NCBI GenBank assembly: GCA_007376385.1
Contig: VMGC01000003.1
Span: 1 to 64,000, forward strand
Direction of reading: 5' to 3'
Length of the DNA: 64,000 bases
Source of the DNA: Parcubacteria group bacterium Gr01-1014_8
Lineage (GTDB): Bacteria > Patescibacteriota > Minisyncoccia > Phycocordibacterales > UBA2100
How positions within the stretch are numbered: the stretch's first letter is position 1; each line of letters opens with the position of its first letter. Below are positions 2,504 to 52,265 of this stretch, one piece after another. Made by a program: the position numbers and the translations under genes. A model generated the notes under the pieces. It was given only the letters and a program-made list of their open reading frames with translations. It made no database searches and was not told the DNA's origin.

Positions 2504-4354
2504 ATGTTCCCTCAATCACATCCCCCTACCCCCCCAGGCCCAGGCCAAAGCGGCCGCGGTCCTCGGCCTCCCCGAAGAGGTTTTGCTTCACGGCGGCCTC
2601 CAAGACAGAGGCGAATGCGCGTCGAACACCAAACATCCTCGCGAGAACGTGCACGCACTGCAGCAGCACCTATACCACCTCCTTCAGCTGACACCGTTCG
2701 TATAATCCCTCTCGGAGGCGTTGAAGAGATAGGACGCAATATGACTGCCATCGAGTTCGGCAATGATATCTTCGTTCTCGACTGCGGATTCCAATTTCGC
2801 GAAGAAGAGACGCCTGGGGTTGACTACATATTGCCGAACACCGGGTATCTTGAAGAGCGCCGAGATAAAATTCGCGGACTTCTGATCTCCCACGGTCACC
2901 TCGACCACATCGGCGGCATCCCCTACGTTTTGGATAGAATAGGCAACCCGACCATTTACACCCGCCGTCTGACCGGCAAGATGATACAAAAGAGACAAGA
3001 GGAATTCGCGCAGACGACGCCGGCAAACATACGCGAAGTCGAAAAAGATGAGGTGATAAAACTTGGCGCAGCAACCATCCGTTTTTTTGGCGTAACTCAC
3101 ACTGTCCCCGACTCGATGGGCATCATTATCGAAACTCCATGGGGAGATGTCGTGTTCACCGGAGACATAAAACTGAATCACGATAATGGACAGCCCTCAG
3201 ATGAGGAAGTCCGGGAGTTTGGGGTATTCAAAAATCGCAAGGTTTTATGCCTCCTCATGGACTCAACGAACGTCTGGCAACCAGGATTCTCCATTCCTGA
3301 GAGAAATGTGTATGAGACGCTTGAGAATATCGTCAAGAATTCCCACGGACGACTTATCATCGCGATGTTTGCCTCGCACCTGGAGCGACTGATCCGCGTC
3401 GTGCATTTCGCAGAAAAATACGGAAAGAAAATAGTCATTGATGGCAGGTCAATGAGAACGAATATCGAGATAGCTCGCGAACTCGGATTGATAAAATACA
3501 AAGACGACACTGTCGTCGCGGTAGAAAACCTTGCGCAGTACCCGCCCGAAAGAATGGTCATCCTTGCGACCGGAGCTCAGGGAGACGAATTTGCATCCCT
3601 AGCTCGCATCGGGAATAAATCACACAAATATATCCGACTGCAGCCAACAGATACTATCGTACTTTCGTCATCCGTCATTCCTGGCAATGAACGAGCTGTT
3701 CAAAAACTGAAGGACAATCTCTCGCGCCAGGGAGCGCACATCATTACCTACCATGCATCTGACGTGCATGCCTCCGGCCACGGAAATCGAGAAGAAGCTG
3801 TCTGGATACATAAACAGGTCAAGCCAAAATTCTTCGTTCCTCTGCATGGCTATCACTACATGCTTCGCGTTCACGCTGATCTCGCAGAAGAATTGGGTGT
3901 GCCTGCTGCGAACACCGTTGTTCCTGACAATGGCTCTGTCATCGAAATAACGAAGGGAGAAAAAATAGTAAAGACCAACCACAAAGCCCCATCGGAATTG
4001 CGCGTCGTTGAAGGACACACCGTGAGCGAACTTTCCGACGTTCTGATGCGTGACAGAAAAGCGCTTGGGCAGGAAGGATTCTGTGTTGTCGTCGCGACAG
4101 TCGATAGACGAAGCGGGAGACTGCACAAATCTCCGGATATCATCTCGCGCGGGTTCGTATACCTGCGTGACAACAAAGAACTTATGGACCAGACTCGGCT
4201 CATCATCAGAAAAAGCGTCGAACAGTCCATGCGGAACCCGCGCTCGGCCGATCTAGATGCGGCGCGAGAAGATCTTGCCGATTCAGTTGCACGGTTCCTG
4301 CTTCAGAGGACAATGAAAAGACCAATAGTCATACCGGTCATTGTCAGCATTTAA
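2504..4354 (+). CDS. rnj: ribonuclease J (metallo-beta-lactamase/beta-CASP RNase)
   Basis: ISHGHLDHIGGIPYV zinc motif plus beta-CASP and C-terminal domain. An unusual Pro/Arg-rich extension of about 60 aa makes the true start uncertain. Confidence 0.9.
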   Translation: MFPQSHPPTPPGPGQSGRGPRPPRRGFASRRPPRQRRMRVEHQTSSRERARTAAAPIPPPSADTVRIIPLGGVEEIGRNMTAIEFGNDIFVLDCGFQFREEETPGVDYILPNTGYLEERRDKIRGLLISHGHLDHIGGIPYVLDRIGNPTIYTRRLTGKMIQKRQEEFAQTTPANIREVEKDEVIKLGAATIRFFGVTHTVPDSMGIIIETPWGDVVFTGDIKLNHDNGQPSDEEVREFGVFKNRKVLCLLMDSTNVWQPGFSIPERNVYETLENIVKNSHGRLIIAMFASHLERLIRVVHFAEKYGKKIVIDGRSMRTNIEIARELGLIKYKDDTVVAVENLAQYPPERMVILATGAQGDEFASLARIGNKSHKYIRLQPTDTIVLSSSVIPGNERAVQKLKDNLSRQGAHIITYHASDVHASGHGNREEAVWIHKQVKPKFFVPLHGYHYMLRVHADLAEELGVPAANTVVPDNGSVIEITKGEKIVKTNHKAPSELRVVEGHTVSELSDVLMRDRKALGQEGFCVVVATVDRRSGRLHKSPDIISRGFVYLRDNKELMDQTRLIIRKSVEQSMRNPRSADLDAAREDLADSVARFLLQRTMKRPIVIPVIVSI

Positions 4355-5285
4355 GGTACCCATTGCCTGCCCTTGAACCAATTTTGGCTTTCAGCGATGG
4401 GAATTGAACAGCGCAAGAATGAAAGGTTTCAACCCCCAAGGCAAGCCCTGGACTCTGGAAAACGAGCACCGCTCGTTTCCCAAATTCCGCGGCCTGTCTG
4501 CGTGCATCGCACAGGCCTAGTCCTTCAGAAACAAGCGACTGAAACGCAGTAGTATAGGCGTCTTTGTAACTGCGCCGAACGTCAGTGAGGGATGTATTTT
4601 TCGCGATCGCTTTTAAAATTGCTCCCCGCACTTGTCGCAAGGAACCCTCGAATCTTGATTGTTTTGAGTGATGTGTACTGCGTCGCGAGGGATTCGGATA
4701 CATGTGCTTGAGATGCGTCCCATAATCCATGAGCGCCGAATACCATATGCGCGGTTCCCGTCTACCAATTGCTGCTTCAACGATTGGAAACAGCTCTTTG
4801 TCCTCGACCTTCTTTTTTCTAGGAAAAAAATGGTGGATGAACACTGCGCGTATATTTGTTTCGATAAAAGTTTCAGGCATATTGAATGCGAACGCCCGAA
4901 CAGCTTTCGCCGTGTAATCCCCTATTCCCGGCAACGCACGCAGCTCTTCATAACTCTCGGGGATCTTTCCGGCGTGGTTCTGCACGATTGCACGCGCCGC
5001 GTCGTGCAAATACTTCGCTCGCCGATTATAGCCAAGTCCGCTCCACACGTTCAAGACATCTACGAGCGACGCTTGTGCCAGTTTTTTGACAGTCGGAAAT
5101 TTCTCCAGAAATTCTTTGTATTTTCCAATGACCCTATGAACCTGCGTCTGCTGAAGCATTATTTCGGAGATGAGTATCTTGTATGGATCTTCCGTTTTTC
5201 TCCAGGGCAGATCTTTCCGCCCATGCGCTCGAAAAAACTCCAGAACAGTTCGTCTAAACGAAGTGTATCTGGCGTCTGTTGTCAC
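4344..5285 (-). CDS. HhH-GPD DNA glycosylase, MutY/EndoIII-like, no obvious Fe-S cysteine cluster
   Basis: MLQQTQVHRVIGKYKEFLEKFPTV...LPGIGDYTA helix-hairpin-helix motif. The last 60 or so codons run through an intergenic-type repeat, so the 3' end is uncertain. Confidence 0.65.
   Translation of the reverse strand: MTTDARYTSFRRTVLEFFRAHGRKDLPWRKTEDPYKILISEIMLQQTQVHRVIGKYKEFLEKFPTVKKLAQASLVDVLNVWSGLGYNRRAKYLHDAARAIVQNHAGKIPESYEELRALPGIGDYTAKAVRAFAFNMPETFIETNIRAVFIHHFFPRKKKVEDKELFPIVEAAIGRREPRIWYSALMDYGTHLKHMYPNPSRRSTHHSKQSRFEGSLRQVRGAILKAIAKNTSLTDVRRSYKDAYTTAFQSLVSEGLGLCDARRQAAEFGKRAVLVFQSPGLALGVETFHSCAVQFPSLKAKIGSRAGNGYLKC
4411..4441. repeat. partial copy of the intergenic repeat family (shares gaaaggtttcaaccccc with the copy at 28939)
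   Basis: 17 nt exact match to 28939-28955. The adjacent 11-mer ggcaagccctg is the reverse complement of cagggcttgcc in the other copy. An imperfect hairpin lies nearby at 4440-4470. Confidence 0.4.
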
Positions 5286-5621: not shown

Positions 5622-6311
5622 CTAAGGCGTATATACGACATCCTTTCGCTCAACGACCACCTTCCACTTCATGCGTTTGGCCGTTTTATAGAGCTTCATA
5701 TTAGGGTTGAAACAGATGGGCTGTGCGACCATTTCTAGGAATGAAATATCCGATTCCGTATCGCCAACACCGATCGACCTCGTCAGGGTCAGGCCTTCAT
5801 TTTCTACCGCTCGACGTACGATATTTGCTTTGTTGTATATAAGATGCTCATCAACAACGCGCCCAGTAAACAGCTCCTGGGGGCCTATTTCATACACCAG
5901 CCCATATGCCTTATCAAAACCAAGACGCGGACAGAATTTATCCAACACGGTTTTGGGTGAATGCGACACAGCAAGCAAGAAATATCCTTTTTTCTTCAAT
6001 TCTGGCAAGAGGTCGCGCGTATAACGATATGTTTGCTTCCACCTCGCCTGCACCATCCTTTCAGCAGCATCTGCGAGCGCAGAATAGTGGAGACCCTTTA
6101 AATGTTTGCGAAATGCCTGGACCAGCGCATCAACGTACGCGCCATAGTCCCCTTCTCGGTCGAGCCATTTCTGCCTCTCTCGTTCGTAGACGGCTTCAGC
6201 CTCCTTTGGAAATGAGCCGTCTTTAATTAGTTGGTCTACAAGCTGGATGAGTAAACTTGAGCGAAAAATTGTGCCGTCGACGTCAAAAATCGCGACCCTA
6301 CGTTTCTCCAT
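5622..6311 (-). CDS. HAD-superfamily hydrolase
   Basis: N-terminal AIFDVDGTI motif I (DxDGT) and downstream HAD motifs. Confidence 0.7.
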   Translation of the reverse strand: MEKRRVAIFDVDGTIFRSSLLIQLVDQLIKDGSFPKEAEAVYERERQKWLDREGDYGAYVDALVQAFRKHLKGLHYSALADAAERMVQARWKQTYRYTRDLLPELKKKGYFLLAVSHSPKTVLDKFCPRLGFDKAYGLVYEIGPQELFTGRVVDEHLIYNKANIVRRAVENEGLTLTRSIGVGDTESDISFLEMVAQPICFNPNMKLYKTAKRMKWKVVVERKDVVYTP

Positions 6312-6335: not shown

Positions 6336-6445
6336 CAAATAAAGGGTATTCATACCGCGGGGTATTCGACCCTATGTTGGCTCCTCGGTTCGGAAATGAA
6401 AGTTAATACTTTCTCGCTTCGCTCGCAACGCTCGCCAATAAAGAT
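6336..6445 (-). repeat. intergenic repeat family copy E (minus orientation), about 85 percent identical to copy A
   Basis: The reverse complement reads tttattggcgagcgttgcgagcgaagcga...tttcatttccgaaccgaggagccaacatagggtcgaatacc, matching 24289-24370. Confidence 0.6.
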
Positions 6446-7758: not shown

Positions 7759-9137
7759 TCATTTTGCAAGAGGACAACGTCCCCTTTTACTGTCATGTGA
7801 GGAAGCGCGATGTATGCCGCAAGTCCGTCGTCAAACCATGTCATTTCTCCCGTAAATCCTGCTTCTCTCAAACCCTTCTCAATGTACAGAGTTACGGAAT
7901 TTTTTATCAATACGATCTTTTCGATGCCGGCTCTCGCAAGCTGTCTTCCTATCTCCTTGTGAACTTCTTCCGCTCGAGAACCCATTTCAACGAGGCCGGG
8001 CGTGACATACAAACGTCGGCCAGGCAGAGATGCCAGAAACTCTATAACAGCCTTCACCCCGTCTGGACTTCCGTTGTAGCTATCGTCAAGCGTCGTGACG
8101 CCATCCAAGACCTTCGGTTCAAGACGATGAGGAAATGCGGACGTTTTCGCGATGCCTGTCTCTATGTGCGAAGGAGCGAGGCCGATACTCGTCGCAATGT
8201 CTACCGCAACGGCAAGCGGACCTATCTGATGAAGTCCGAGCAGTTTTGAACGTACATGTATTGCTACACTCCCGTTCGCGAGCATGCACGATGTACCTTC
8301 AAGTCTGGTCTTCGCATCTGAAACTTTCCAGTTCCCAACACCCTCCCTGCTGTACAGAGTATGCTCCTTTAATGCTCTTCCTTGCGAAATATCATTTTCT
8401 GCGTTGACATATACGAATTTGTCTTGGAGATATTCTGCCAGCTCAAAAATTGTATCCGCCGTGTTTTCTAACGTGCCAAATTTCTCTAAATGCGCCTCGT
8501 TGACGCCGGTGATGATGCCAATAGACGGTCTCACAAATCTGCATAATTTCTTAATATCCCCACGATAATATTCTCCTAGTTCGAAGACCAGAACATCTTC
8601 GTCGCCTTTTAGAGACTTTACAAATCCCGCTATCCCCAGCGGCGTGTTGTAGCTCCCGGGAGGCGCCGCAACTTTTTTCCCTTCACTAAGGACCGTTTTT
8701 AAGATCTCTCGCATTGATGTTTTGCCGTAGCTGCCTGCGATGGCTATTTTGAGAGCCTTGTGACGTGAAAGTCTTTGTTTTGCCCTCCCAATAAGCAGCA
8801 ATTCTATTGGCAATTGGATCGCTCGAAGAGCAAGAACAACAAGGATGAGGCCGTATGCGAGAAGGAACGGCCACACCAGGAATGCAATACCAACTACAAG
8901 CGGCTTTCCTGTCGAAAATGCGAGTGCTAGCCAGAGCACGACTAGGCTCCACGCAAGTACATACAGCAGGATTGCTTTAGGAGTCCACACTAATTTCTTA
9001 CGGTGTTCAACAAATCGAAAATCCTCTACCCGGTGCAGCCACTTCACATAGTCGCGGATATTGTATTCGCTTGCCTGCAACATATAGATCAGCGAGCGAA
9101 CGGAACTCGGCAAATATCGTGAAAGCCAAGGCATCAT
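7737..9137 (-). CDS. murF: MurF-like Mur ligase with an N-terminal two-helix membrane domain
   Basis: IAIAGSYGKTS P-loop and LDDSYNGSPDGVKAV (MurF DDSYNANP motif). The first 115 aa or so are two hydrophobic helices in place of the canonical MurF N-domain. Confidence 0.8.
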   Translation of the reverse strand: MMPWLSRYLPSSVRSLIYMLQASEYNIRDYVKWLHRVEDFRFVEHRKKLVWTPKAILLYVLAWSLVVLWLALAFSTGKPLVVGIAFLVWPFLLAYGLILVVLALRAIQLPIELLLIGRAKQRLSRHKALKIAIAGSYGKTSMREILKTVLSEGKKVAAPPGSYNTPLGIAGFVKSLKGDEDVLVFELGEYYRGDIKKLCRFVRPSIGIITGVNEAHLEKFGTLENTADTIFELAEYLQDKFVYVNAENDISQGRALKEHTLYSREGVGNWKVSDAKTRLEGTSCMLANGSVAIHVRSKLLGLHQIGPLAVAVDIATSIGLAPSHIETGIAKTSAFPHRLEPKVLDGVTTLDDSYNGSPDGVKAVIEFLASLPGRRLYVTPGLVEMGSRAEEVHKEIGRQLARAGIEKIVLIKNSVTLYIEKGLREAGFTGEMTWFDDGLAAYIALPHMTVKGDVVLLQNDWPDQYV

Positions 9138-9886
9138 ATTGAAAATTCTTTTATCAAAGTCGAGACGCGGTCGGGTTTCTCTTGCTGAACAAAGTGCGTT
9201 GCACCATCTACAACCCGAAGAACCGATCCCGCTACAAGTGAATTGATGCGCTCACCCTGTTCAAGCGGCGTTATCGTATCGTTTCTCCCCCAGATAATAA
9301 GCGTAGGTAATGAGATACGCGCGGCAAAGGCACTCAAATCTTCACGTACCACGGCAACAAAGGTGTCCTTAAGAGCTCCGGCGGTAAAATAGTCACTTCC
9401 TATTTTTTCATAGAGTTTACGGCGAAGCTGGTTGCGCCATATGCTGAGAGGAGGAATTACTGTAAGCACCTTCCCTATCTTCGCAACGCCGCCGAGCACG
9501 CTGTTCCTGGATCCCCTCTGCTTTGCAAGTCCCGCCGCAGAAATAAGAATGATCCGGCGCGGCTTTAGAATCCCACTTCCAACACCCTTAATAACGATCC
9601 TGCCGCCAAGCGAATGGCCGATAATAGTATCAACATCGAGATTTAATTTACGGATGAATTCGTTCACAAAATTCACATATGCGGAGACATTCCATGGCTG
9701 TATTGATATTTCGCTTTGCCCAAAGCCCGGCAGATCGAGACGGACGACCCTATATGTATGCTTTAACTCCCGCGAAAGCGCATCAAACGTATGAAGTGTG
9801 TCTTTCCATCCGTGAAGCATCAACACAACCCGTCCGGAACCTTCGTCCTCATATTGTGTCGCTAGATCTTGAACGATAGTCTTCAT
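9134..9886 (-). CDS. alpha/beta hydrolase
   Basis: HGW...GHSLGG nucleophile elbow, 250 aa. Confidence 0.6.
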   Translation of the reverse strand: MKTIVQDLATQYEDEGSGRVVLMLHGWKDTLHTFDALSRELKHTYRVVRLDLPGFGQSEISIQPWNVSAYVNFVNEFIRKLNLDVDTIIGHSLGGRIVIKGVGSGILKPRRIILISAAGLAKQRGSRNSVLGGVAKIGKVLTVIPPLSIWRNQLRRKLYEKIGSDYFTAGALKDTFVAVVREDLSAFAARISLPTLIIWGRNDTITPLEQGERINSLVAGSVLRVVDGATHFVQQEKPDRVSTLIKEFSI

Positions 9887-9889
9887 ATC

Positions 9890-10567
9890 TCAGGTTTTTG
9901 GCCAGATCCGTGCGGCTTTCGGCCACAACTTCGTCAAAGGATGGCCTGCACAGTCGTGCCTGCGAGCTTTGCAAATATAACGTCCATACAGAACAAGTCC
10001 ATTGTTCATATATTTCCAGTCTTTCCGGGGAACTAATTTTTCGAGGTCTTTGGAAATCTTCGTAAGATCCGTGTGACCCGTCAGATCAAATTTTCGGGCA
10101 AATCGCTTCACATGAGTATCCGTCGCGATTCCCGGCCATACATCGTACAATTCTCCCAGAACAACATGAGCAGTTTTATACCCGACCCCCGGCAATTTCT
10201 GTAGCATCGCTGCGTCGCTCGGCACTTTGCCTTTGTATTGCTGTGCGACTATTTTTGCAGCCTGTATTATCGCCTTTGATTTATTCCGAAAAAACGAGAC
10301 TCGGGATACTTCCCTTTCAAGAACTTTGGCATCGGCTTTTGCGAATGCTTTTGCATCCTTGTATTTCCTAAAAAGCTCTTCAGTAACCTTGTTCACTAAC
10401 TTATCCGTGCATTGTGCTGAGAGAATGACCGCAACAACGAACTGAAACGGCGTTTTGTATTGTAATTCGCTTTTTGGTTCAGGGTATTTCTTTTTTAGAT
10501 ACCGTACGATCTCTTCTGCTCTTTTTCGCCGTTTCGCAGTAGGTATCATACGGCGACTCCCTGACAC
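9890..10567 (-). CDS. nth: endonuclease III family HhH-GPD glycosylase
   Basis: LPGVGYKTAHVVL HhH-GPD motif, C-terminal Cys-containing segment. Confidence 0.8.
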   Translation of the reverse strand: MSGSRRMIPTAKRRKRAEEIVRYLKKKYPEPKSELQYKTPFQFVVAVILSAQCTDKLVNKVTEELFRKYKDAKAFAKADAKVLEREVSRVSFFRNKSKAIIQAAKIVAQQYKGKVPSDAAMLQKLPGVGYKTAHVVLGELYDVWPGIATDTHVKRFARKFDLTGHTDLTKISKDLEKLVPRKDWKYMNNGLVLYGRYICKARRHDCAGHPLTKLWPKAARIWPKT

Positions 10568-10581
10568 ATTCTCCTCCCAAA

Positions 10582-11043
10582 TTAGTATTGCTGAATAAAG
10601 ATCGGCACTTCAACAGATGCATCGCGTTCCTCATCGCCAGAAGGATTATCTTTGTGCAGTATAAGAGTCGCAGGTCCACTGTAGACCTCGGTCAGTTTTA
10701 CTTCAGCTTTGAAAGGAACGAATTCTTCGGTCATCCATTCGCCTTCAGCTTCTGCATGCCCCATAGCGACCACTTTTCCCCCTTCTGCGACGACCTCGAC
10801 GGGAAAACTTGCCTCGAAGTACCAAGGGCCTCGTGCTTGTCCAAAAACGCTGAATTCACGAAGCACCGTCACACCTGCTGGGATATTGTCAATGACTATC
10901 ATGTCTTTATCCGCATTGTTGTAATGTATCTTTACTGAATTTCCTTCAAAAAACCCCGAACCGTAATCAGAGGTAAGAAACCATACAAGGCCCGCAAGGA
11001 GAGCGATGCCAATTACGCCGATCAGTATCATCTGTTTGCTCAT
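10582..11043 (-). CDS. membrane-anchored Gmad2-like Ig-fold domain protein
   Basis: N-terminal TM helix. GPWYFEASFPVEV...EWMTEEFVPF resembles the Gmad2 domain. Confidence 0.45.
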   Translation of the reverse strand: MSKQMILIGVIGIALLAGLVWFLTSDYGSGFFEGNSVKIHYNNADKDMIVIDNIPAGVTVLREFSVFGQARGPWYFEASFPVEVVAEGGKVVAMGHAEAEGEWMTEEFVPFKAEVKLTEVYSGPATLILHKDNPSGDEERDASVEVPIFIQQY

Positions 11044-11058
11044 ACGGCTGATTTTACA

Positions 11059-11487
11059 TTACCTTTTGACGAAACGCGAAACGATGAAGAGGGTTGCGGG
11101 GAGCAGCAACGACATTTGAAGTATCGGCGAAACAGCGACCCCTAATATTGGGATGATGGGCATTTCAGGAAGATATTGCCAGCGATCAAGCGCTAGACCT
11201 TTATATTCCACAAATAGGGCGATCAAAAAACCGAGCGCAACGAGCGCAAGGTAATCGGACATCCGCATTTCATGGATCCAATCGAGAGAGCGCCTGATGC
11301 CGCTTACGAGCGCGAACGCACCGAGCGTATATAACACATCCCCTATTGTTGCCATTAGTACAACCGGCATTCCGAGGGTCCAGCTTTCATAACCCGTATA
11401 GAGATGAACATGCCACGACTCCCATGCAAGATGCAATGTGAATGAGACAAGCACTATCAATGTCAGCGTGGCGTACAAAGACCTCAT
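11059..11487 (-). CDS. integral membrane protein (4 predicted TM helices), function unknown
   Basis: Hydrophobicity pattern only. Confidence 0.4.
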   Translation of the reverse strand: MRSLYATLTLIVLVSFTLHLAWESWHVHLYTGYESWTLGMPVVLMATIGDVLYTLGAFALVSGIRRSLDWIHEMRMSDYLALVALGFLIALFVEYKGLALDRWQYLPEMPIIPILGVAVSPILQMSLLLPATLFIVSRFVKR

Positions 11488-11491
11488 AGTG

Positions 11492-12478
11492 TTAGCTTCT
11501 TTTTCCGTCCACCAAGCGCATCAATAATTCCGCTATCTTGTCAGAGTCATGCCGAATAAGCGCGCGGCGCAGCACATCACCCTTCGCTTTCCTTGTAACA
11601 CCGTTCGCAAGGAGATCAGCGCCCACAAGTGCATGTCCGCCATGTGCGGCTTTTCCGAGTGTTACGGGCTCTCCTTCATCCCTATATTTGCGAAGCAACG
11701 CGGACCCGGGTTTTTTCGTGTTGTATACCACTGTGTCAAACATGTTCTTTTTTCCAATGCATTGCTCAAATGTCCGCACGTAATCCGCAACCTTGAAATC
11801 ATCGGTGTGTCCGTTCTTATTCATCAAATTGACAACGTACACCTTCTTCGCTTTCGAGCGTCGGAGCGCATCGCTTATCCCCGGTACAAGAAAATTTGGT
11901 ATGAGCGATGTGTACAGATCCCCTGGACCGACGACGATGAGATCTGCCTCTCGAATTGCTTGAAGTGCCTTAGGATTGGCTCGTCCTTTCGGCTTAAGAT
12001 ATATCTTCTTGATGCCGAAACGAGATAAAAGCTGGTAATCTCCGAGCGCATCCTCACCTTCGATGACTTTGCCATTCTTAAGCTGTGCAACCAGTTTTAT
12101 TTTGTCGAGCGTAACCGGAATGACACGACCCTTAATATTTAAAATAGTGCTCGCGAGGTCAAGCGCTTTATCCAGCGAGCCTGTCACGATCTCAAGCGTT
12201 GAAATAAAGATATTCCCAAAATTGTGGCCTTTCAGCTCGCCCTTGTCGAAGCGAAAATTCATCAACTTTCGCATAACCTGCGGAGCGCTTGAGAGTGCGA
12301 CAAGACATTGCCTGAGGTCACCAGGAGGAAGAACGCCAAATTCATCCATTAAGCGGCCAGTCGAGCCGCCATCATCAGACATCGTAACTATCGCTGAAAG
12401 CTCTACTGGGTACTTCTTCAAGCCCTGCAAGAGAGCAAATCTGCCGGTCCCGCCCCCTATCGTGACGATTTTCTTCAT
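11492..12478 (-). CDS. YvcK/CofD-family protein (UPF0052, gluconeogenesis factor-like)
   Basis: MKKIVTIGGGTG N-terminal motif and overall length typical of the family. Confidence 0.8.
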   Translation of the reverse strand: MKKIVTIGGGTGRFALLQGLKKYPVELSAIVTMSDDGGSTGRLMDEFGVLPPGDLRQCLVALSSAPQVMRKLMNFRFDKGELKGHNFGNIFISTLEIVTGSLDKALDLASTILNIKGRVIPVTLDKIKLVAQLKNGKVIEGEDALGDYQLLSRFGIKKIYLKPKGRANPKALQAIREADLIVVGPGDLYTSLIPNFLVPGISDALRRSKAKKVYVVNLMNKNGHTDDFKVADYVRTFEQCIGKKNMFDTVVYNTKKPGSALLRKYRDEGEPVTLGKAAHGGHALVGADLLANGVTRKAKGDVLRRALIRHDSDKIAELLMRLVDGKRS

Positions 12479-24288: not shown

Positions 24289-24405
24289 GTTTATTGACGA
24301 GCGTTGCGAGTGAAGCGAAAATGTACTCATTTTCATTTCCGAGCCGAGGAGTCAACACAGGGTCGAATACCCTTTATCTGGCATTGCCGTCGAAAACGGC
24401 AATGT
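24289..24405 (+). repeat. intergenic repeat family copy A, with a downstream 9 bp hairpin
   Basis: tttattgacgagcgttgcgagtgaagcgaaaatg...cattttcatttccgagccgaggagtcaacacagggtcgaataccc, then CATTGCCGTcgaaaACGGCAATG. Confidence 0.6.
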
Positions 24406-28223: not shown

Positions 28224-28940
28224 GTGAAAGCTATTTTCTTTATTCTTGTCATTTCGTTCTTCAGCGCAGTTCAGTGGGTATCAAATATCGCGCTTCCTCC
28301 TCTTCCTCCCTCAACCGCACAGCAGACTGCTTCTGTTTCCATCTCCACGACAGATACAACCGAAACTTCGCCAACATCAAAAAAGTCAGAGCAAAATACT
28401 GCCGCATCTTCGCTGGTGCCAAAACAGTTGCCCGCGGCTTCGACACAACAACCTCATCCGTCCAACAAATTTCCCGAGCAGACAACCCCTCCGACACCGA
28501 TCACATTATCTGTAGAAACTGAAAAAGATTTCTTAACAAAAGTTGAGATAGAAATATTCTTGCTTACTAATAAAGAGCGCACAGCACTGGGACTCCCCTC
28601 GCTTGTCACAGATACTGAGCTTGCGGCAATTGCTGAAGCACACAGCAAGGACATGCTCATGAACGACTACTTCTCGCATGAAGATAAGAGCGGATGCAGT
28701 TCATCATGCCGGGCAAATAACAGAGGATACTCTTGGTCAACAATTGGAGAGAATATTTATATGATGTCCGGTTACGAACTTTCCGCAACAGAAGCTGCCG
28801 CAATGATCGTACAGGGCTGGATGAACAGCCCCGGACATCGTGCAAATATCCTGCGTCCTGCCTTTACTCACCTTGGCGTCGGTGTTGTTGCGGAAGGGAA
28901 AAACGTCTATTCAACGGCGCTTTTCGCGAAACCGAGATGA
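28224..28940 (+). CDS. secreted CAP/SCP/PR-1-like domain protein with Ser/Thr/Pro-rich linker
   Basis: Signal peptide, low-complexity T/S/P/Q linker, C-terminal CAP domain (EAHSKDM...GHRANIL...HLGVGV). Confidence 0.7.
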   Translation: MKAIFFILVISFFSAVQWVSNIALPPLPPSTAQQTASVSISTTDTTETSPTSKKSEQNTAASSLVPKQLPAASTQQPHPSNKFPEQTTPPTPITLSVETEKDFLTKVEIEIFLLTNKERTALGLPSLVTDTELAAIAEAHSKDMLMNDYFSHEDKSGCSSSCRANNRGYSWSTIGENIYMMSGYELSATEAAAMIVQGWMNSPGHRANILRPAFTHLGVGVVAEGKNVYSTALFAKPR

Positions 28941-29046
28941 AAGGTTTCAACCCCCAGGGCTTGCCGCGGGATTTTGAACCTGTGCTGTCTACGTCGCTCG
29001 GAAATGCGAAACCTGCGCTTTCGCATTTCGCGTGCTACCCTCGACA
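28938..29046 (-). repeat. intergenic repeat family copy B (diverged, minus orientation) between convergent genes
   Basis: Contains GAAATGCGAAAcctgcgcTTTCGCATTTC (29001-29029), catttccgagc and acaggttcaaaatccc. Its 3' end gaaaggtttcaaccccc is shared with 4411. Confidence 0.5.
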
Positions 29047-42059: not shown

Positions 42060-42067
42060 TCTCGCTG

Positions 42068-42141
42068 CGCGAGTGAAGGGACTTGAACCCTCGACCTTTC
42101 CCGTGACAGGGGAACGCTCTAACCAGCTGAGCTACACCCGC
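42068..42141 (-). tRNA. tRNA-Asp(GUC)
   Basis: Acceptor GCGGGTG/CACTCGC, anticodon loop CTGTCAC, T-arm GAGGG-TTCAAGT-CCCTT. Confidence 0.85.
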
Positions 42142-42493: not shown

Positions 42494-42512
42494 CTTAGTA
42501 TTCTACTACAGG

Positions 42513-42586
42513 TGCTGGGGGACGGGATCGAACCGTCGACCTAGCGCTTATGAAACGCTCGCTCTAACCGACTGAGCTACCCCAGC
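42513..42586 (-). tRNA. tRNA-Met/Ile2(CAU), elongator type
   Basis: Acceptor GCTGGGG/CCCCAGC, D-loop AGTCGGTTA, anticodon loop TTCATAA, T-arm GACGG-TTCGATC-CCGTC. Confidence 0.85.
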
Positions 42587-42817: not shown

Positions 42818-42827
42818 GCTGTACTTG

Positions 42828-42899
42828 TTGCGGGGGCGGGACTTGCACCCGCGACCTTCAGGTTATGAGCCTGACGAGCTACTACTGCTCCACCCCGCT
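42828..42899 (-). tRNA. initiator-like tRNA-Met(CAU) with non-canonical D and T loops
   Basis: AGCGGGGUGGAGC...CUCAUAA...CCCCGCAA resembles E. coli tRNA-fMet. A1:A72 are unpaired. D-loop AGTAGTA lacks G18G19 and T-loop is TGCAAGT instead of TTCRANY. Confidence 0.6.
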
Positions 42900-42942: not shown

Positions 42943-43042
42943 TTTATTTGCGACGTAGAGCGAGTGAAATGCAAAAGAGCACTTTTGCATTTCCGAGCCG
43001 AGGAGCAAACACAGGTTCAATACCTCGCAGCTTTGCTGCGAG
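42942..43042 (+). repeat. intergenic repeat family copy C with downstream hairpin
   Basis: gcgagtgaaatgcaaaagagcacttttgcatttccgagccgaggagcaaacacaggttcaatacc, then CTCGCAGCtttgGCTGCGAG. Confidence 0.6.
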
Positions 43043-43096
43043 ACAGGGCGAGCGAAGCGAGCTCCATAATACCTCGGGGCTTGCTCCGAGGGACCT

Positions 43097-43786
43097 TTAT
43101 TCAATATATTTGAATTCTCTAAAAACGCGCTCATACATTCGTATCACGCGTTTTGCTTCGCGCGCATCAAGCTGAACATTTGCACTATCGTGCACAACAC
43201 GATTTCTTATTTTGTGAGCTTCCCACGCGAAATCGATCGAATTGAATGCCTCAATAGGAATTTGCTTCATTTTATCTGCCATTGTTTCCCCTTTATATCC
43301 GAGCACATCCAAGAGGTCATTCAGCATGATATCCGCTTCAAGTATGGCAAGCCGCCATTTTTCCACATCTTCTGAATTCACCTGCTCCCAAATTCGACGC
43401 CAGCGAAGCTGTGTCCTAGACAGATCTTGGCTGACAATTGGTCGAGCACCGGCAGCCATAGCTGTTCGCTCAATGCGGCGTATCTGCAGGATGCGCACAA
43501 CGCAATAGATGATGCCGGCGCCAAGGACAAGTGAAAGAAATGTTGCAAGGGGAAATATCGGCCCCCAGAAATTTAGGATCGTATCGACTGACCAGCCGGT
43601 CGTCACCTCCTGCTGTATCGACTGCACGATTGGCGTTGGCTCCGGATAGACACTGGGATCATAGGTAAAGGGCGAGGGCGGCGGTGCGTCTCCGTAGCCC
43701 GCATCATAGAACCACGCCAAGGTAACGCTCTCAAAAAAATGAACTACTGCCCAGTAGGCATCTCCAAGTGAACTTCCTCCATTCAT
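43097..43786 (-). CDS. hypothetical single-pass membrane protein with a cytoplasmic RNxxxH (HEPN-like) motif domain
   Basis: About 80 aa N-terminal segment, one TM helix, then a basic stretch and a 130 aa alpha-helical C-domain containing EAHKIRNRVVHD (Rx4H). Confidence 0.4.
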   Translation of the reverse strand: MNGGSSLGDAYWAVVHFFESVTLAWFYDAGYGDAPPPSPFTYDPSVYPEPTPIVQSIQQEVTTGWSVDTILNFWGPIFPLATFLSLVLGAGIIYCVVRILQIRRIERTAMAAGARPIVSQDLSRTQLRWRRIWEQVNSEDVEKWRLAILEADIMLNDLLDVLGYKGETMADKMKQIPIEAFNSIDFAWEAHKIRNRVVHDSANVQLDAREAKRVIRMYERVFREFKYIE

Positions 43787-43795
43787 TCGCCTATT

Positions 43796-45211
43796 CTACC
43801 GCGTTTGTTCAATATCCTTGCCGATTGTAAACAACATCTCTTCCCCACCATGCGAACCAATGGCTTGAAAGCCTACTGGGAGCTCTTTCCCATCGCGAGT
43901 GACAGTACCCGCGGGCACAGATATCGCAGGAACGCCTGCAAGATTTACAGGTACGGTGAAAATATCTGCCGCGTACATAGCGAGAGGATCGTCCGATTTT
44001 TCTCCGATCTTAAACGCGGGAATTGGCGATGTGGGTGTTGCAACAGCATCAACCGATTCAAATGCTTTTTTAAAATCCTCACGGACGAGGGAGCGAACAG
44101 CACGAGCCTTACGATAGTACGCGTCAGCGTAACCCGATGAGAGCACAAATGTTCCTACTAAGATCCGGCGCCTGGCTTCGGGACCGAATCCACGTCCTCG
44201 CGTTTTTGTGTATACATCTCCTATTGTTTCTGCGGGTTCAGAAAGACCATAACGTATACCGTCAAAGCGCGCCAGATTCGTAGACACTTCGGCCGGATTA
44301 ATAATGTAGTACACAGCAAGAGAGTATGTGAGATTCGGCAATTCGATGTCTCGGATCTCATACCCTGCTTTCCGCAAATTATTGAGCACACTCTCGAACC
44401 GCAAAGATACATCTTTTTCCACTCCACTTGAGACGAACGCGCGAGGTACCCCTATCACCTTCGGCTTTTTTACGTACACAGCTGTATCCGGAAGCGACGT
44501 ACTGTCGTTAGTATCGTGCCCTCGTATCGCGTTAAACACAGCCTCAACATCGCCGACTGTTTTGCCGATGGGGCCGATCTGATCAAGAGATGACGCAGCT
44601 GCCATTAATCCGAAGCGCGACACTGCACCGTACGTTGGTTTCAAACCGACAACACCGCAAAGAGCCGCGGGCTGGCGAATTGAGCCGCCAGTGTCACTTC
44701 CGAGACCGACCAGAGCCATATTCGCCGCAACCGCCGCCGCAGGTCCTCCCGACGTCCCGCCAGCAACACGCGATGTATCGTACGGATTCTTGGTTACGCC
44801 ATACGCTGAATTTTCCGTCGAGGAGCCAAGAGCAAATTCATCCATATTTGCTCGTCCCAAAAATACCGCTCCCTCATTTTTTAGCTTTGTTGTTACGGTT
44901 GCATCATACGAAGCTACATAGCTCTCCAATATCTTGGAGGCAGCGCTCGCATGTCGCCCTTTTATTAAAATATTGTCTTTTATCGCAACAGGAATTCCAG
45001 TAAGAGATAATGCATTGCCTTCTCGTATGCGTTCGTCCGCTTCTTGTGCTTCAGCGAGCGCTGTTTCCGCCCATACTTCTAAATACGCATGAATATCAGG
45101 GTCGCGCAGGGCTATCTCTTTTAAATAGGCTTCGGTTAGTTCTCTCGCTGAAAATTTCTTGGCATCGAGTGCGCGTCTGGCCTCCATAACCGTAAGTGCT
45201 GATAGTTCCAT
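43796..45211 (-). CDS. gatA: Glu-tRNA(Gln)/Asp-tRNA(Asn) amidotransferase subunit A
   Basis: Amidase signature GGSSGGPAAAVA with Ser-cisSer-Lys triad context, 471 aa. Confidence 0.9.
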   Translation of the reverse strand: MELSALTVMEARRALDAKKFSARELTEAYLKEIALRDPDIHAYLEVWAETALAEAQEADERIREGNALSLTGIPVAIKDNILIKGRHASAASKILESYVASYDATVTTKLKNEGAVFLGRANMDEFALGSSTENSAYGVTKNPYDTSRVAGGTSGGPAAAVAANMALVGLGSDTGGSIRQPAALCGVVGLKPTYGAVSRFGLMAAASSLDQIGPIGKTVGDVEAVFNAIRGHDTNDSTSLPDTAVYVKKPKVIGVPRAFVSSGVEKDVSLRFESVLNNLRKAGYEIRDIELPNLTYSLAVYYIINPAEVSTNLARFDGIRYGLSEPAETIGDVYTKTRGRGFGPEARRRILVGTFVLSSGYADAYYRKARAVRSLVREDFKKAFESVDAVATPTSPIPAFKIGEKSDDPLAMYAADIFTVPVNLAGVPAISVPAGTVTRDGKELPVGFQAIGSHGGEEMLFTIGKDIEQTR

Positions 45212-45213
45212 AC

Positions 45214-47534
<2,321 letters not shown>

Positions 47535-47586: not shown

Positions 47587-47997
47587 CTAGTACCGCAATT
47601 CGACGGAACGCTGAAGCGCACGAGCACTCGTCCCAATAGAAGCACAGCTAGTGCTGTATCCGTCCGAGTGAATAGTGGTCCGAGGATAAAAGTTTCGTTT
47701 CGTTACAACTACTCTCACGCAGCGCCCGTTTGGTTCGAATTCGTACGAGAACGTCACCGTCCACGGAGCATACGATGCCTGGCTATAGTACGAGCCTTCG
47801 GCGTAGTAAGAAGACTGGCTGTAGTACGTGCTTTGCGAATAGTATGTTGATTGACTGTAGTATGTACCTTGAGAATAGTACGTCCCCTGCGAATAGTATC
47901 CGCCTTCACCATACGCAGCGTATGCAAAAAAGGGCACCGCGCTCAACAAAAAGACAAGAGCAAACAGAAACTTCTTCTTTTGTTGCGATACGTTCAT
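47587..47997 (-). CDS. secreted tyrosine-rich tandem-repeat protein (YYSQxT hexapeptide repeats)
   Basis: Signal peptide, then (G/S)TYYSQ repeated about 7 times, encoded by an 18 nt tandem DNA repeat. Confidence 0.55.
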   Translation of the reverse strand: MNVSQQKKKFLFALVFLLSAVPFFAYAAYGEGGYYSQGTYYSQGTYYSQSTYYSQSTYYSQSSYYAEGSYYSQASYAPWTVTFSYEFEPNGRCVRVVVTKRNFYPRTTIHSDGYSTSCASIGTSARALQRSVELRY

Positions 47998-51246: not shown

Positions 51247-51756
51247 CTACGGCTTCACGCAATACGACGGATCATCACATGTGGTAGCGCCACCTGCGAG
51301 CCCCGCCCAAAGTCCGTCAACGTCACCGAGTGGAACCGCGCTAGCGCCTCCTTCGATAACTGATTTAATGACGTAGCTAGAGCACGGCACTGCCGTACAT
51401 GCTGCACCTGCCCCGTCGGCAGAAGCATACGAGTACACGTACGAACCACTGTTCGTCGGGTCACTTGATATCTGTGAGATGAACTGCTCTGTGACAAGAG
51501 CCCCAAGTCCGCTGGCAGCACCCATGTCTGTTGTGCCAGACACACCACCCGCAACAACTGCTGGGTATGATTGGTGCGCATCGTAGTACAACTCAAGCGC
51601 TAACTGCATTTGCTTCATGTCCGCGATGCGGCGTGCATCACGTCCCTTCTTTCGCGCGCTGTTCAAGGACGCAAGAACGACGGACGAAAGAATACCGATG
51701 ATGGCGATAACCACCAATAGTTCAATGAGAGTGAAGCCTCTCGATGTTCGATTCAT
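51247..51756 (-). CDS. pilA: type IV major pilin (PilA-like)
   Basis: RGFTLIELLVVIAIIGILSSVVLASL. Start is probably the internal Met before the leader. Confidence 0.8.
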   Translation of the reverse strand: MNRTSRGFTLIELLVVIAIIGILSSVVLASLNSARKKGRDARRIADMKQMQLALELYYDAHQSYPAVVAGGVSGTTDMGAASGLGALVTEQFISQISSDPTNSGSYVYSYASADGAGAACTAVPCSSYVIKSVIEGGASAVPLGDVDGLWAGLAGGATTCDDPSYCVKP

Positions 51757-51791: not shown

Positions 51792-52265
51792 CTAATTGCA
51801 ACCGGATCGAACGCTTCCGTTTGCATCAACGTATACCATTCCAGGGGTCGTCCGGGGCCCCGTTCCGACTTCCAGATATGCACACGCTTGCCAATTCTGG
51901 GTAGTCGCCCCCCCTGTTGAGAGATCCGCCTGCGTACCGATGGCATAATCGCATGCACTGCCCGATCCTTCAGTGCAGGCGGTGGTGGAGCCGGAGGGAT
52001 CTTTATATGCCGACAGATCTGGCGTCGTACACGTGCTGACTCGAGCTGCCCCTGATGTGCAACCTACAAAGGTCGTAGCAGCTCCACCCGTATCAGCAAT
52101 GGCAACTGCGTTGCCTATTTGGCGAAGATCCTCTACGCGGCGCGTATCGCGGCCTTTTTTACGAGCATTATTCAAGGACGCCAAAATGACCGAGGACAAG
52201 AGCCCAATAACCGCAATAACCACCAATAGTTCAATGAGAGTGAAGCCTCTGTTTTTTTCTTGCAT
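51792..52265 (-). CDS. pilA: type IV major pilin paralog (PilA-like)
   Basis: MQEKNRGFTLIELLVVIAVIGLLSSVILASL. Confidence 0.8.
   Translation of the reverse strand: MQEKNRGFTLIELLVVIAVIGLLSSVILASLNNARKKGRDTRRVEDLRQIGNAVAIADTGGAATTFVGCTSGAARVSTCTTPDLSAYKDPSGSTTACTEGSGSACDYAIGTQADLSTGGATTQNWQACAYLEVGTGPRTTPGMVYVDANGSVRSGCN

Follow-up and report, generated by a model that had tools for sequence, protein, structure and literature searches.

Bacterial RNases of the HEPN superfamily are, to our knowledge, known almost solely from conflict systems: toxin-antitoxin modules, abortive-infection (Abi) systems, CRISPR accessory nucleases and anticodon nucleases. RNases of this superfamily function as dimers. 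Three groups of transmembrane (TM)-associated bacterial HEPN domains have been described, of which one, the Abi2/Swt1 clade, is positioned behind a single conserved TM segment (PMC3710099; Anantharaman et al. 2013). Here we describe a gene encoding a predicted TM-anchored HEPN protein (the TM-HEPN gene) in a 64,000-nucleotide stretch of contig VMGC01000003.1 (assembly GCA_007376385.1) of Parcubacteria group bacterium Gr01-1014_8; we refer to the whole stretch as the window and, unless another locus is named, give all coordinates as positions within it. The protein resembles the TM-fused Abi2/Swt1 HEPN proteins in having an extracytoplasmic segment, a single TM helix directly N-terminal of a cytoplasmic HEPN domain, and an intact Rx4H motif, and its best below-threshold relative in Pfam is a Swt1-like HEPN model. 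It differs from them, as judged from the published description of that group, in that the sequence N-terminal of the TM helix is hypervariable and contains no conserved globular all-alpha domain. Moreover, the family is confined to metagenome-assembled genomes (MAGs) of Parcubacteria/Patescibacteria, is fixed in an operon with gatC and gatA, and has a sister family that occupies the same position and lacks the motif. TM-fused HEPN proteins are thus already known as a kind, and the new part is a Parcubacteria-wide family linked to gatCA. Searches of the accessible literature (HEPN in Patescibacteria or the Candidate Phyla Radiation (CPR), membrane-anchored HEPN, and GatCAB or gatB in CPR) turned up no publication dealing with the family, and no experimental study either of it or of the TM-fused Abi2/Swt1 group.

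The best functional analogy for the family is Ire1, which crosses the membrane once, with its sensor domain on the far side and, in the cytoplasm, a HEPN-type RNase that is activated by dimerization or oligomerization (PMC3710099). Unlike Ire1 and RNase L (KEN), the family has no kinase or pseudokinase and only about 25 residues between the TM helix and the HEPN domain, which is canonical rather than circularly permuted. There is no Pfam match to a kinase or KEN model in the window protein or among the families listed for its homologs, and Pfam and PDB sequence and profile searches reveal no sequence relationship to Ire1 or RNase L. The HepT toxins of HEPN-MNT systems (SO_3166, PDB 5yep; AMPylated toxin, PDB 8xdj) differ in other ways, as the family has no adjacent MNT gene, is membrane-anchored, and is clade-fixed rather than mobile. 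In structural alignments to HepT toxins, sequence identity is 10 to 11%. RNase Y, of Firmicutes and others, is a housekeeping endoribonuclease held at the inner face of the membrane by an N-terminal TM anchor. Any likeness to it would be in function only, since RNase Y is much larger and its catalytic domain (KH plus HD, metal-dependent) is unrelated.

The TM-HEPN gene is a complete open reading frame, and its product is 100% identical to the NCBI entry 'Uncharacterized protein G01um10148_638' of Parcubacteria group bacterium Gr01-1014_8. The gene and the predicted parts of its product are as follows.

43097..43786, minus strand: TM-HEPN gene, complete open reading frame with ATG start, 229 amino acids plus stop (open reading frame list)
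43553..43786, minus strand: residues 1-78, hypervariable acidic, proline-rich N-terminal segment, predicted extracytoplasmic (charge count, alignment)
43496..43552, minus strand: residues 79-97, predicted transmembrane helix (Kyte-Doolittle, AlphaFold2)
43418..43495, minus strand: residues 98-123, arginine-rich juxtamembrane helix and linker, predicted on the cytoplasmic side (K/R count, AlphaFold2)
43100..43417, minus strand: residues 124-229, predicted HEPN domain (AlphaFold2 helices, conservation)
43331..43339, minus strand: E150-A151-D152, conserved acidic residues in helix 2 (conservation)
43214..43216, minus strand: H191, second invariant histidine, one helical turn before R194 (conservation)
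43190..43207, minus strand: R194-N195-R-V-V-H199, Rx4H motif at the C-terminal end of helix 3 (codons AGA AAT CGT GTT GTG CAC)

Residues 79-97 are the strongest hydrophobic 19-mer of the protein (Kyte-Doolittle 2.13) and its sole strong hydrophobic segment. In an AlphaFold2 model built on a 120-sequence alignment (mean predicted local distance difference test score [pLDDT] 86; 92 to 98 in the C-terminal domain), they are part of a single long helix spanning residues 77-114 (pLDDT 86 to 98), with a low-confidence linker after residue 114. Because lysine and arginine are absent before the TM helix (0 K/R and 8 D/E in residues 1-78) and enriched in the 28 residues after it (6 K/R in residues 98-125), the positive-inside rule predicts an N-out/C-in topology. 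The membrane part is itself conserved: Y94 in the TM helix is present in 120/120 close homologs and in 134 of the 151 representatives of the broad family (the two sets used for all conservation counts), and the juxtamembrane residues R98, R103, and E106 are invariant or nearly so among the close homologs. An earlier note on this DNA had described an extracytoplasmic N terminus, one TM helix and a cytoplasmic helical domain, and hydropathy, K/R distribution and the AlphaFold2 model bear this out; membrane anchoring, with the C-terminal helical domain predicted to be cytoplasmic, is supported.

The C-terminal domain is modeled as four helices (residues 124-136, 141-162, 184-199, and 208-224), with an insert, residues 163-183, between helices 2 and 3. 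In the published description of HEPN domains (PMC3710099), the third helix ends in an Rx4-6H motif whose arginine is directly followed by a polar residue (N, D or H), helix 2 contains a conserved acidic residue, and an insert separates helices 2 and 3. The window protein agrees with each element of this anatomy: its Rx4H motif, contained in EAHKIRNRVVHD (residues 189-200, within the C-terminal helical domain), closes helix 3, N195 follows the arginine, E150 and D152 are in helix 2, and residues 163-183 form the insert. The earlier note had taken the Rx4-6H motif as a sign of a HEPN RNase, and the motif is indeed conserved and at the structurally correct place; on the other hand, the bare motif carries no significance by itself, as R-x4-6-H occurs in 49% of shuffles of the window protein, R-x4-H in 20%, and RN-x3-H in 0.8%. 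It is conservation, fold and position that raise the motif above chance.

Conservation of the candidate catalytic residues is strong. R194, N195, H191, and W188 are invariant in both sets (120/120 close, 151/151 broad), D152 is present in 120/120 and 150/151, and E150 is present in 120/120 and 139/151, with D in another 10 of the broad set. H199 is present in 110/120 close homologs (replaced by Q in 7, K in 2, and N in 1) and in 148/151 broad representatives. The earlier note had named conservation of the arginine and histidine among homologs as a check on its proposal, and it holds for R194, and also for H191, but not throughout for H199. All ten members without H199 (P0006, P0009, P0017, P0019, P0020, P0024, P0034, P0064, P0069, and P0074) belong to the sub-clade nearest to the window protein; they retain H191, R194, N195, and W188, and the rest of the domain is intact. 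We note that some HEPN families use an alternative histidine (PMC3710099), and H191 may be an auxiliary or alternative catalytic residue.

Curated libraries do not place the protein, in agreement with the earlier note, which had assigned it to no known family. The best Pfam match is HEPN_Swt1 (PF18731), with 13.3 bits (E 0.1) against a gathering cutoff of 27.5, in an alignment covering residues 111-223 and model positions 7-112 of 115. The same model is found below threshold in 47/120 homologs (best E 4.4e-4), and family consensus sequences score 15.5 to 17.1 bits against it, likewise under the cutoff. Other recurrent below-threshold Pfam models among the 120 homologs are CTD11 of ABC-3C systems (34/120) and the HEPN model pEK499_p136 (21/120). 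NCBIfam, PADLOC, and PHROGs scans of the window protein gave no match. DUF4145 and LemA, suggested earlier as possible families, have no match to the query at Pfam E<=10 and are absent among the 25 listed of 63 families matched by the 120 homologs (E<=1). Sequence searches against PDB chains, and profile searches using a full-length or a domain-only profile, returned solely TM-helix or chance matches. The structure prediction and comparison proposed in the earlier note gave a modeled HEPN-type fold; the best Foldseek match in PDB has an E of 0.18 and is not significant, the highest-probability matches are HEPN proteins, and the closest structural matches include HepT toxins, LsoA, AbiA, and HepS. 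Taken at the level of the superfamily, the HEPN assignment is supported by the modeled fold and the conserved residues.

The genomic context is strikingly uniform. Upstream of the TM-HEPN gene are the following genes.

43796..45211, minus strand: gatA, amidase subunit of GatCAB (Pfam Amidase)
45214..45525, minus strand: gatC (Pfam GatC)
45522..47525, minus strand: ligA, NAD-dependent DNA ligase, the first gene of a ligA-gatC-gatA-HEPN string conserved in the Kaiserbacteria-type clade (Pfam DNA ligase domains)

The end of gatA is only 9 nt ahead of the HEPN start codon, which argues that both genes belong to one operon; among loci, the spacing ranges from a 1-nt overlap to 29 nt. A promoter and terminator scan of the operon gave sites no more numerous than in shuffles. 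The gatC gene is upstream of gatA in all loci examined and ligA is upstream in most, with occasional insertions separating ligA from gatC; the string is located downstream of a type IV pilus cluster. In GTDB, relatives are found in 334 species. Of 80 species-representative loci drawn from these, 70 have sufficient sequence to count the upstream neighbor, and in 69 of them this immediate neighbor is gatA, on the same strand. At one exceptional locus (L056), about 4.4 kb is inserted between gatA and the HEPN gene. The linkage to gatA is also kept in distant members carrying SH3-like repeats (see below), despite their different other neighbors.

For a sample free of bias toward the family, we collected 80 metagenomic loci through GatA alone and counted those with at least 900 nt downstream. 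The family gene directly follows gatA in 44 of the 46 such loci in which GatA identity to the window is at least 54%, and the counts by identity are as follows.

GatA identity >=66%: family gene after gatA in 10/10
GatA identity 58-65%: family gene after gatA in 22/22
GatA identity 54-57%: family gene after gatA in 12/14
GatA identity 50-53%: family gene after gatA in 0/15

By these counts, the gene is a fixed feature of a single clade and is missing beyond that clade. In three loci with GatA identities of 53 to 55% (L132, L134, and L139), gatA is followed by other genes: one for a multi-TM protein, one for a 454-amino-acid protein, and convergent genes. Median identity over the 80 species loci is 60.5% for the HEPN domain, 61.8% for LigA, and 54.8% for GatC; the HEPN domain diverges at a housekeeping-like rate. 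Gene order and sequence comparison thus show a TM-HEPN gene that is vertically inherited, clade-fixed, and in a predicted operon with gatCA.

The family is large. A word-indexed search found 1378 homologs at E<=1e-3, all of them from Patescibacteria/Parcubacteria MAGs (Kaiserbacteria, Paceibacterota, Minisyncoccia), and an exhaustive profile search found 2724 clusters (50% identity) at E<=1e-3, 722 of them at E<=1e-30. The conserved unit, at profile positions ~64 to 224, has a short motif ahead of the TM helix and continues through that helix and the juxtamembrane helix into the HEPN domain; it is always C-terminal. The region before it varies from 0 to 545 residues in length, being lacking in forms of about 195 amino acids, and residues 1-63 of the window protein can be aligned in only 2/80 species loci. 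Where 60 or more residues precede the core TM helix, 83/103 members have an additional N-terminal hydrophobic segment; the window protein belongs to the short forms, with about 78 acidic, proline-rich N-terminal residues and without a strong first TM segment. The longest members have three to seven predicted extracellular repeats of the type GPxYxxGxRYWYVDFESGPDGWV. In the distant members P0169, P0179, P0218, and P0158 (loci L087 and L088), a basic tail and a first TM helix are followed by repeats (SH3_3 or Tudor_5) and then by the TM-HEPN unit; SH3_3 is above its Pfam cutoff in P0179 (42.7 bits). Repeats of these types suggest a wall- or ligand-binding ectodomain. The window contains one other 229-amino-acid open reading frame (5622-6311, minus strand), beside copy A of the repeat element described below; it was considered as a paralog and rejected, as BLASTP showed no similarity to the TM-HEPN protein.

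Some of the loci outside the main clade contain a different gene in the same slot. In two of them (L160 and L169) a TM protein of about 200 amino acids is encoded directly after gatA, and further searching defined a sister family of 16 clusters from Patescibacteria/Parcubacteria (e.g., 'hypothetical protein KJ616_01785 [Patescibacteria group bacterium]'). The genes located are the following.

L160, 1702-2325: sister-family gene
L169, 4292-5035: sister-family gene
L171, 4001-4627: sister-family gene
L172, 4001-4591: sister-family gene
L173, 4001-4600: sister-family gene

An hhalign comparison of the two families gives a probability of 92% (E 5.8e-7) over 91 columns across the whole domain, and the sister-family hidden Markov model detects main-family open reading frames down to an E of 7e-10. 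The sister proteins have the same layout, a TM helix and a HEPN-type fold, and the same position after gatC-gatA, but K-E-V-L-E-K-M-L stands in place of the Rx4H motif. The flanking genes differ, with ligA and tRNA genes on either side in the main family, whereas the sister order is class II aminoacyl-tRNA synthetase-mreB-gatC-gatA-X-tmk-pheS-pheT, where X is the sister gene and overlaps the gatA stop codon. Because the sister family holds the same slot, the gatC-gatA-X triad is older than the main clade and outlives the loss of the catalytic residues.

The reading that we favor, with a confidence only somewhat above even, is that the family protein is a constitutive membrane-tethered HEPN RNase that is co-expressed with gatCA and has a role in normal physiology. 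In this model, the protein would be produced constitutively along with GatCA and would act as a metal-independent endoribonuclease at the inner face of the membrane, presumably leaving 2',3'-cyclic phosphate ends. It would probably form a dimer that pairs two Rx4H motifs, by analogy with other HEPN RNases, and the conserved TM/juxtamembrane segment together with the variable ectodomain would be candidate controls of that pairing, as in Ire1; control through TM segments and ectodomains has already been proposed for TM-fused HEPN domains (PMC3710099). The role would be in RNA processing, RNA turnover or signal-dependent RNA cleavage rather than in abortive infection or toxin-antitoxin killing. 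Several observations weigh against this reading. The HEPN_Swt1 scores of the window protein and of the family consensus sequences are all below the cutoff, the Foldseek matches are not significant, and four-helix bundles can look alike through convergence. H199 is lost in ten close relatives whose domain is otherwise intact, and the sister family, which has the same layout and location, has no Rx4H motif at all, so that the selected function may not need catalysis. Dimerization and TM-based regulation are proposed purely by analogy, and a hypervariable ectodomain joined to a conserved effector domain also fits an immune sensor.

The observations on the sister family and on H199 lend themselves to an explanation that we regard as rather unlikely, but which deserves the most attention among the alternatives, namely that the domain is not catalytic and is instead a module for binding RNA, tRNA or protein, serving as a membrane tether or regulator with GatCA(B), the R, N, and H residues being used for binding. 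Motif-less HEPN domains are reported to act as nucleic-acid-binding domains (PMC3710099), the triad persists over deep divergence from the ligA-gatCA-X-tRNA order of the main family to the aminoacyl-tRNA synthetase-mreB-gatCA-X-tmk-pheST order of the sister family, and the stop/start overlaps with gatA suggest translational coupling. However, invariant R194 and N195, with H199 present in 92 to 98% and E150 and D152 conserved, form a pattern typical of an active site, and the link to GatCA rests on gene order. A dedicated variant, to which we give still less credence, is that the protein is a third partner of GatC and GatA in the operon slot held elsewhere by gatB, and that it either tethers the amidotransferase or its tRNA substrates to the membrane, or cleaves or sequesters tRNA(Gln/Asn) as a form of quality control or regulation, the RNase motif being dispensable in the sister lineage. 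This is compatible with a gatC-gatA-X order that outlasts sequence divergence, changes of flanking genes and loss of the motif, and with the frequent overlap of stop and start codons. Replacement of GatB by the family protein was considered and rejected, because a clade member (L072) has a genuine gatB (GatB_N, 344 bits; GatB_Yqey, 86 bits) that is detached from gatCA, which also argues against a replaced GatCAB subunit under the non-catalytic reading. In L072, secA (8139-10640) and gatB (10770-12197) are about 1.4 to 4 kb downstream of the HEPN gene, with gatB about 4 kb downstream and after secA.

The earlier note had proposed an abortive-infection or toxin-type effector, for which the variable ectodomain would sense phage or envelope damage and the HEPN RNase would then shut the cell down. 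Most bacterial HEPN families do belong to conflict systems (PMC3710099), the nearest structural matches include conflict proteins such as HepT toxins, LsoA, AbiA, and HepS, and an immune sensor would be expected to look like this, with a hypervariable ectodomain, in some members swapped for SH3-like repeats, joined to a conserved effector. Other observations speak against the proposal. The gene has a single chromosomal position within a housekeeping operon (69/70 and 44/46 loci in the two samples), is clade-fixed, and diverges much as LigA does. No antitoxin-like partner was found in any annotated locus, downstream genes being variable, and no MNT-type nucleotidyltransferase Pfam family is listed for flanking genes in these loci. 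The annotation shows no defense genes among the window neighbors, there is no PADLOC match, no relative was found on 2.9 million viral contigs, and the nearby tRNA cluster is conserved synteny. We therefore do not find the effector proposal supported and consider it improbable. Finally, the resemblance to HEPN could be fortuitous, the protein being a generic membrane-anchored four-helix bundle with a chance Rx4H; the frequency of R-x4-6-H in shuffles, Pfam HEPN matches that are all below their cutoffs, the absence of a significant Foldseek match in PDB and the empty profile searches against PDB sequences would each permit this, but the conservation, fold and position of the motif noted above leave us regarding it as very improbable indeed.

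If the favored reading of a membrane-tethered RNase is correct and the enzyme is active, the family would be a bacterial counterpart of the 'domesticated' eukaryotic HEPN proteins Ire1, Las1, and Swt1, and a candidate for the membrane-bound enzyme that processes RNA in organisms with these reduced genomes. Should the tie to GatCA prove functional, an unrecognized membrane-associated step in indirect tRNA aminoacylation would be indicated. In either case, the family has the behavior of a core gene in a major uncultivated lineage (Parcubacteria/Paceibacteria), with thousands of clusters, one copy and one position, and Pfam, NCBIfam, PADLOC, and PHROGs all miss it, a clear gap in these curated libraries.

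Downstream of the TM-HEPN gene are three tRNA genes.

42827..42899, minus strand: tRNA-Met (73 nt), conserved downstream neighbor (ARAGORN, Rfam)
42511-42586, minus strand: tRNA-Met (ARAGORN)
42067-42141, minus strand: tRNA-Asp (ARAGORN)

In most related loci the HEPN gene is followed by this 73-nt tRNA-Met, in one orientation or the other, and a tRNA-Met/tRNA-Met/tRNA-Asp/tRNA-Thr cluster recurs downstream in most relatives with varying orientation. The tRNA genes that the earlier note called a hot-spot are thus present, but an integration hot-spot is rejected, because the same genes follow the HEPN gene in most relatives and the cluster is conserved backbone synteny. The note had also placed a repeat copy beside the gene, and this copy, termed C, is present: 42960-43018 matches 24306-24364 at 80% identity, and there is a third copy at 6381-6398. 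The full element is an intergenic sequence of about 85 nt with three copies.

42945-43030, plus strand: repeat element, copy C
24290-24375, plus strand: repeat element
6360-6445, minus strand: repeat element

The repeat core, CATTTCCGAGCCGAGGAG, has three matches in the window against 0.06 expected. Each copy contains a hairpin followed by a conserved single-stranded stretch, and the stems differ among copies yet stay paired (AUGCAAAAG/CUUUUGCAU, GAAAAUG/CAUUUUC, and GAAAGU/ACUUUC); the folding z-score is -4.5 in copy C, -3.1 in copy B, and -0.3 in copy A. The space that separates the HEPN stop codon from tRNA-Met is filled by copy C, and with the terminator-like hairpin that follows it on the plus strand (43072-43091) it is convergent with the HEPN gene. 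In one relative (L052, 6753-6768) the element is found at this position too, but inverted. A known RNA family was considered and rejected, as the element has no Rfam match either at the gathering score or with E<=1; a small RNA gene and a miniature mobile element are both possible identities for it. An independent assembly encoding an identical protein (L090; ENA contig k139_135950, 90,687 nt) ends about 485 nt after the HEPN gene, in the vicinity of copy C and the tRNA cluster, which fits with assemblies being broken by the repeat or by the tRNA genes.

Elsewhere in the window are housekeeping genes for RNase J, a Mur ligase, PurF, GlmS, CTP synthase, and PilB, and a gene for an ABC substrate-binding protein. 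RNase J (beta-CASP, RNase_J_C) is encoded at 2504-4354 on the plus strand, and there is therefore at least one canonical housekeeping RNase besides the putative HEPN RNase. Just upstream of ligA, at 47767-47899, a 43-nt unit is present in four overlapping copies (spacing 36, 36, and 18 nt; 65 to 74% identity), which look like a repeat with an 18-nt period and possibly encode a repetitive peptide within the gene that precedes ligA. A 122-nt direct repeat in the pseudopilin/type IV pilus region (51620-51741 and 52129-52250, 509 nt apart, 76% identity) probably reflects paralogous pseudopilin genes. Two 42-nt stretches (4419-4460 and 28937-28978) are 79% identical and both start with ATGAAAGGTTTCAACCCCCA (MKGFNPQ...); they could mark the 5' ends of paralogs, perhaps with a shared signal or pilin-like leader.

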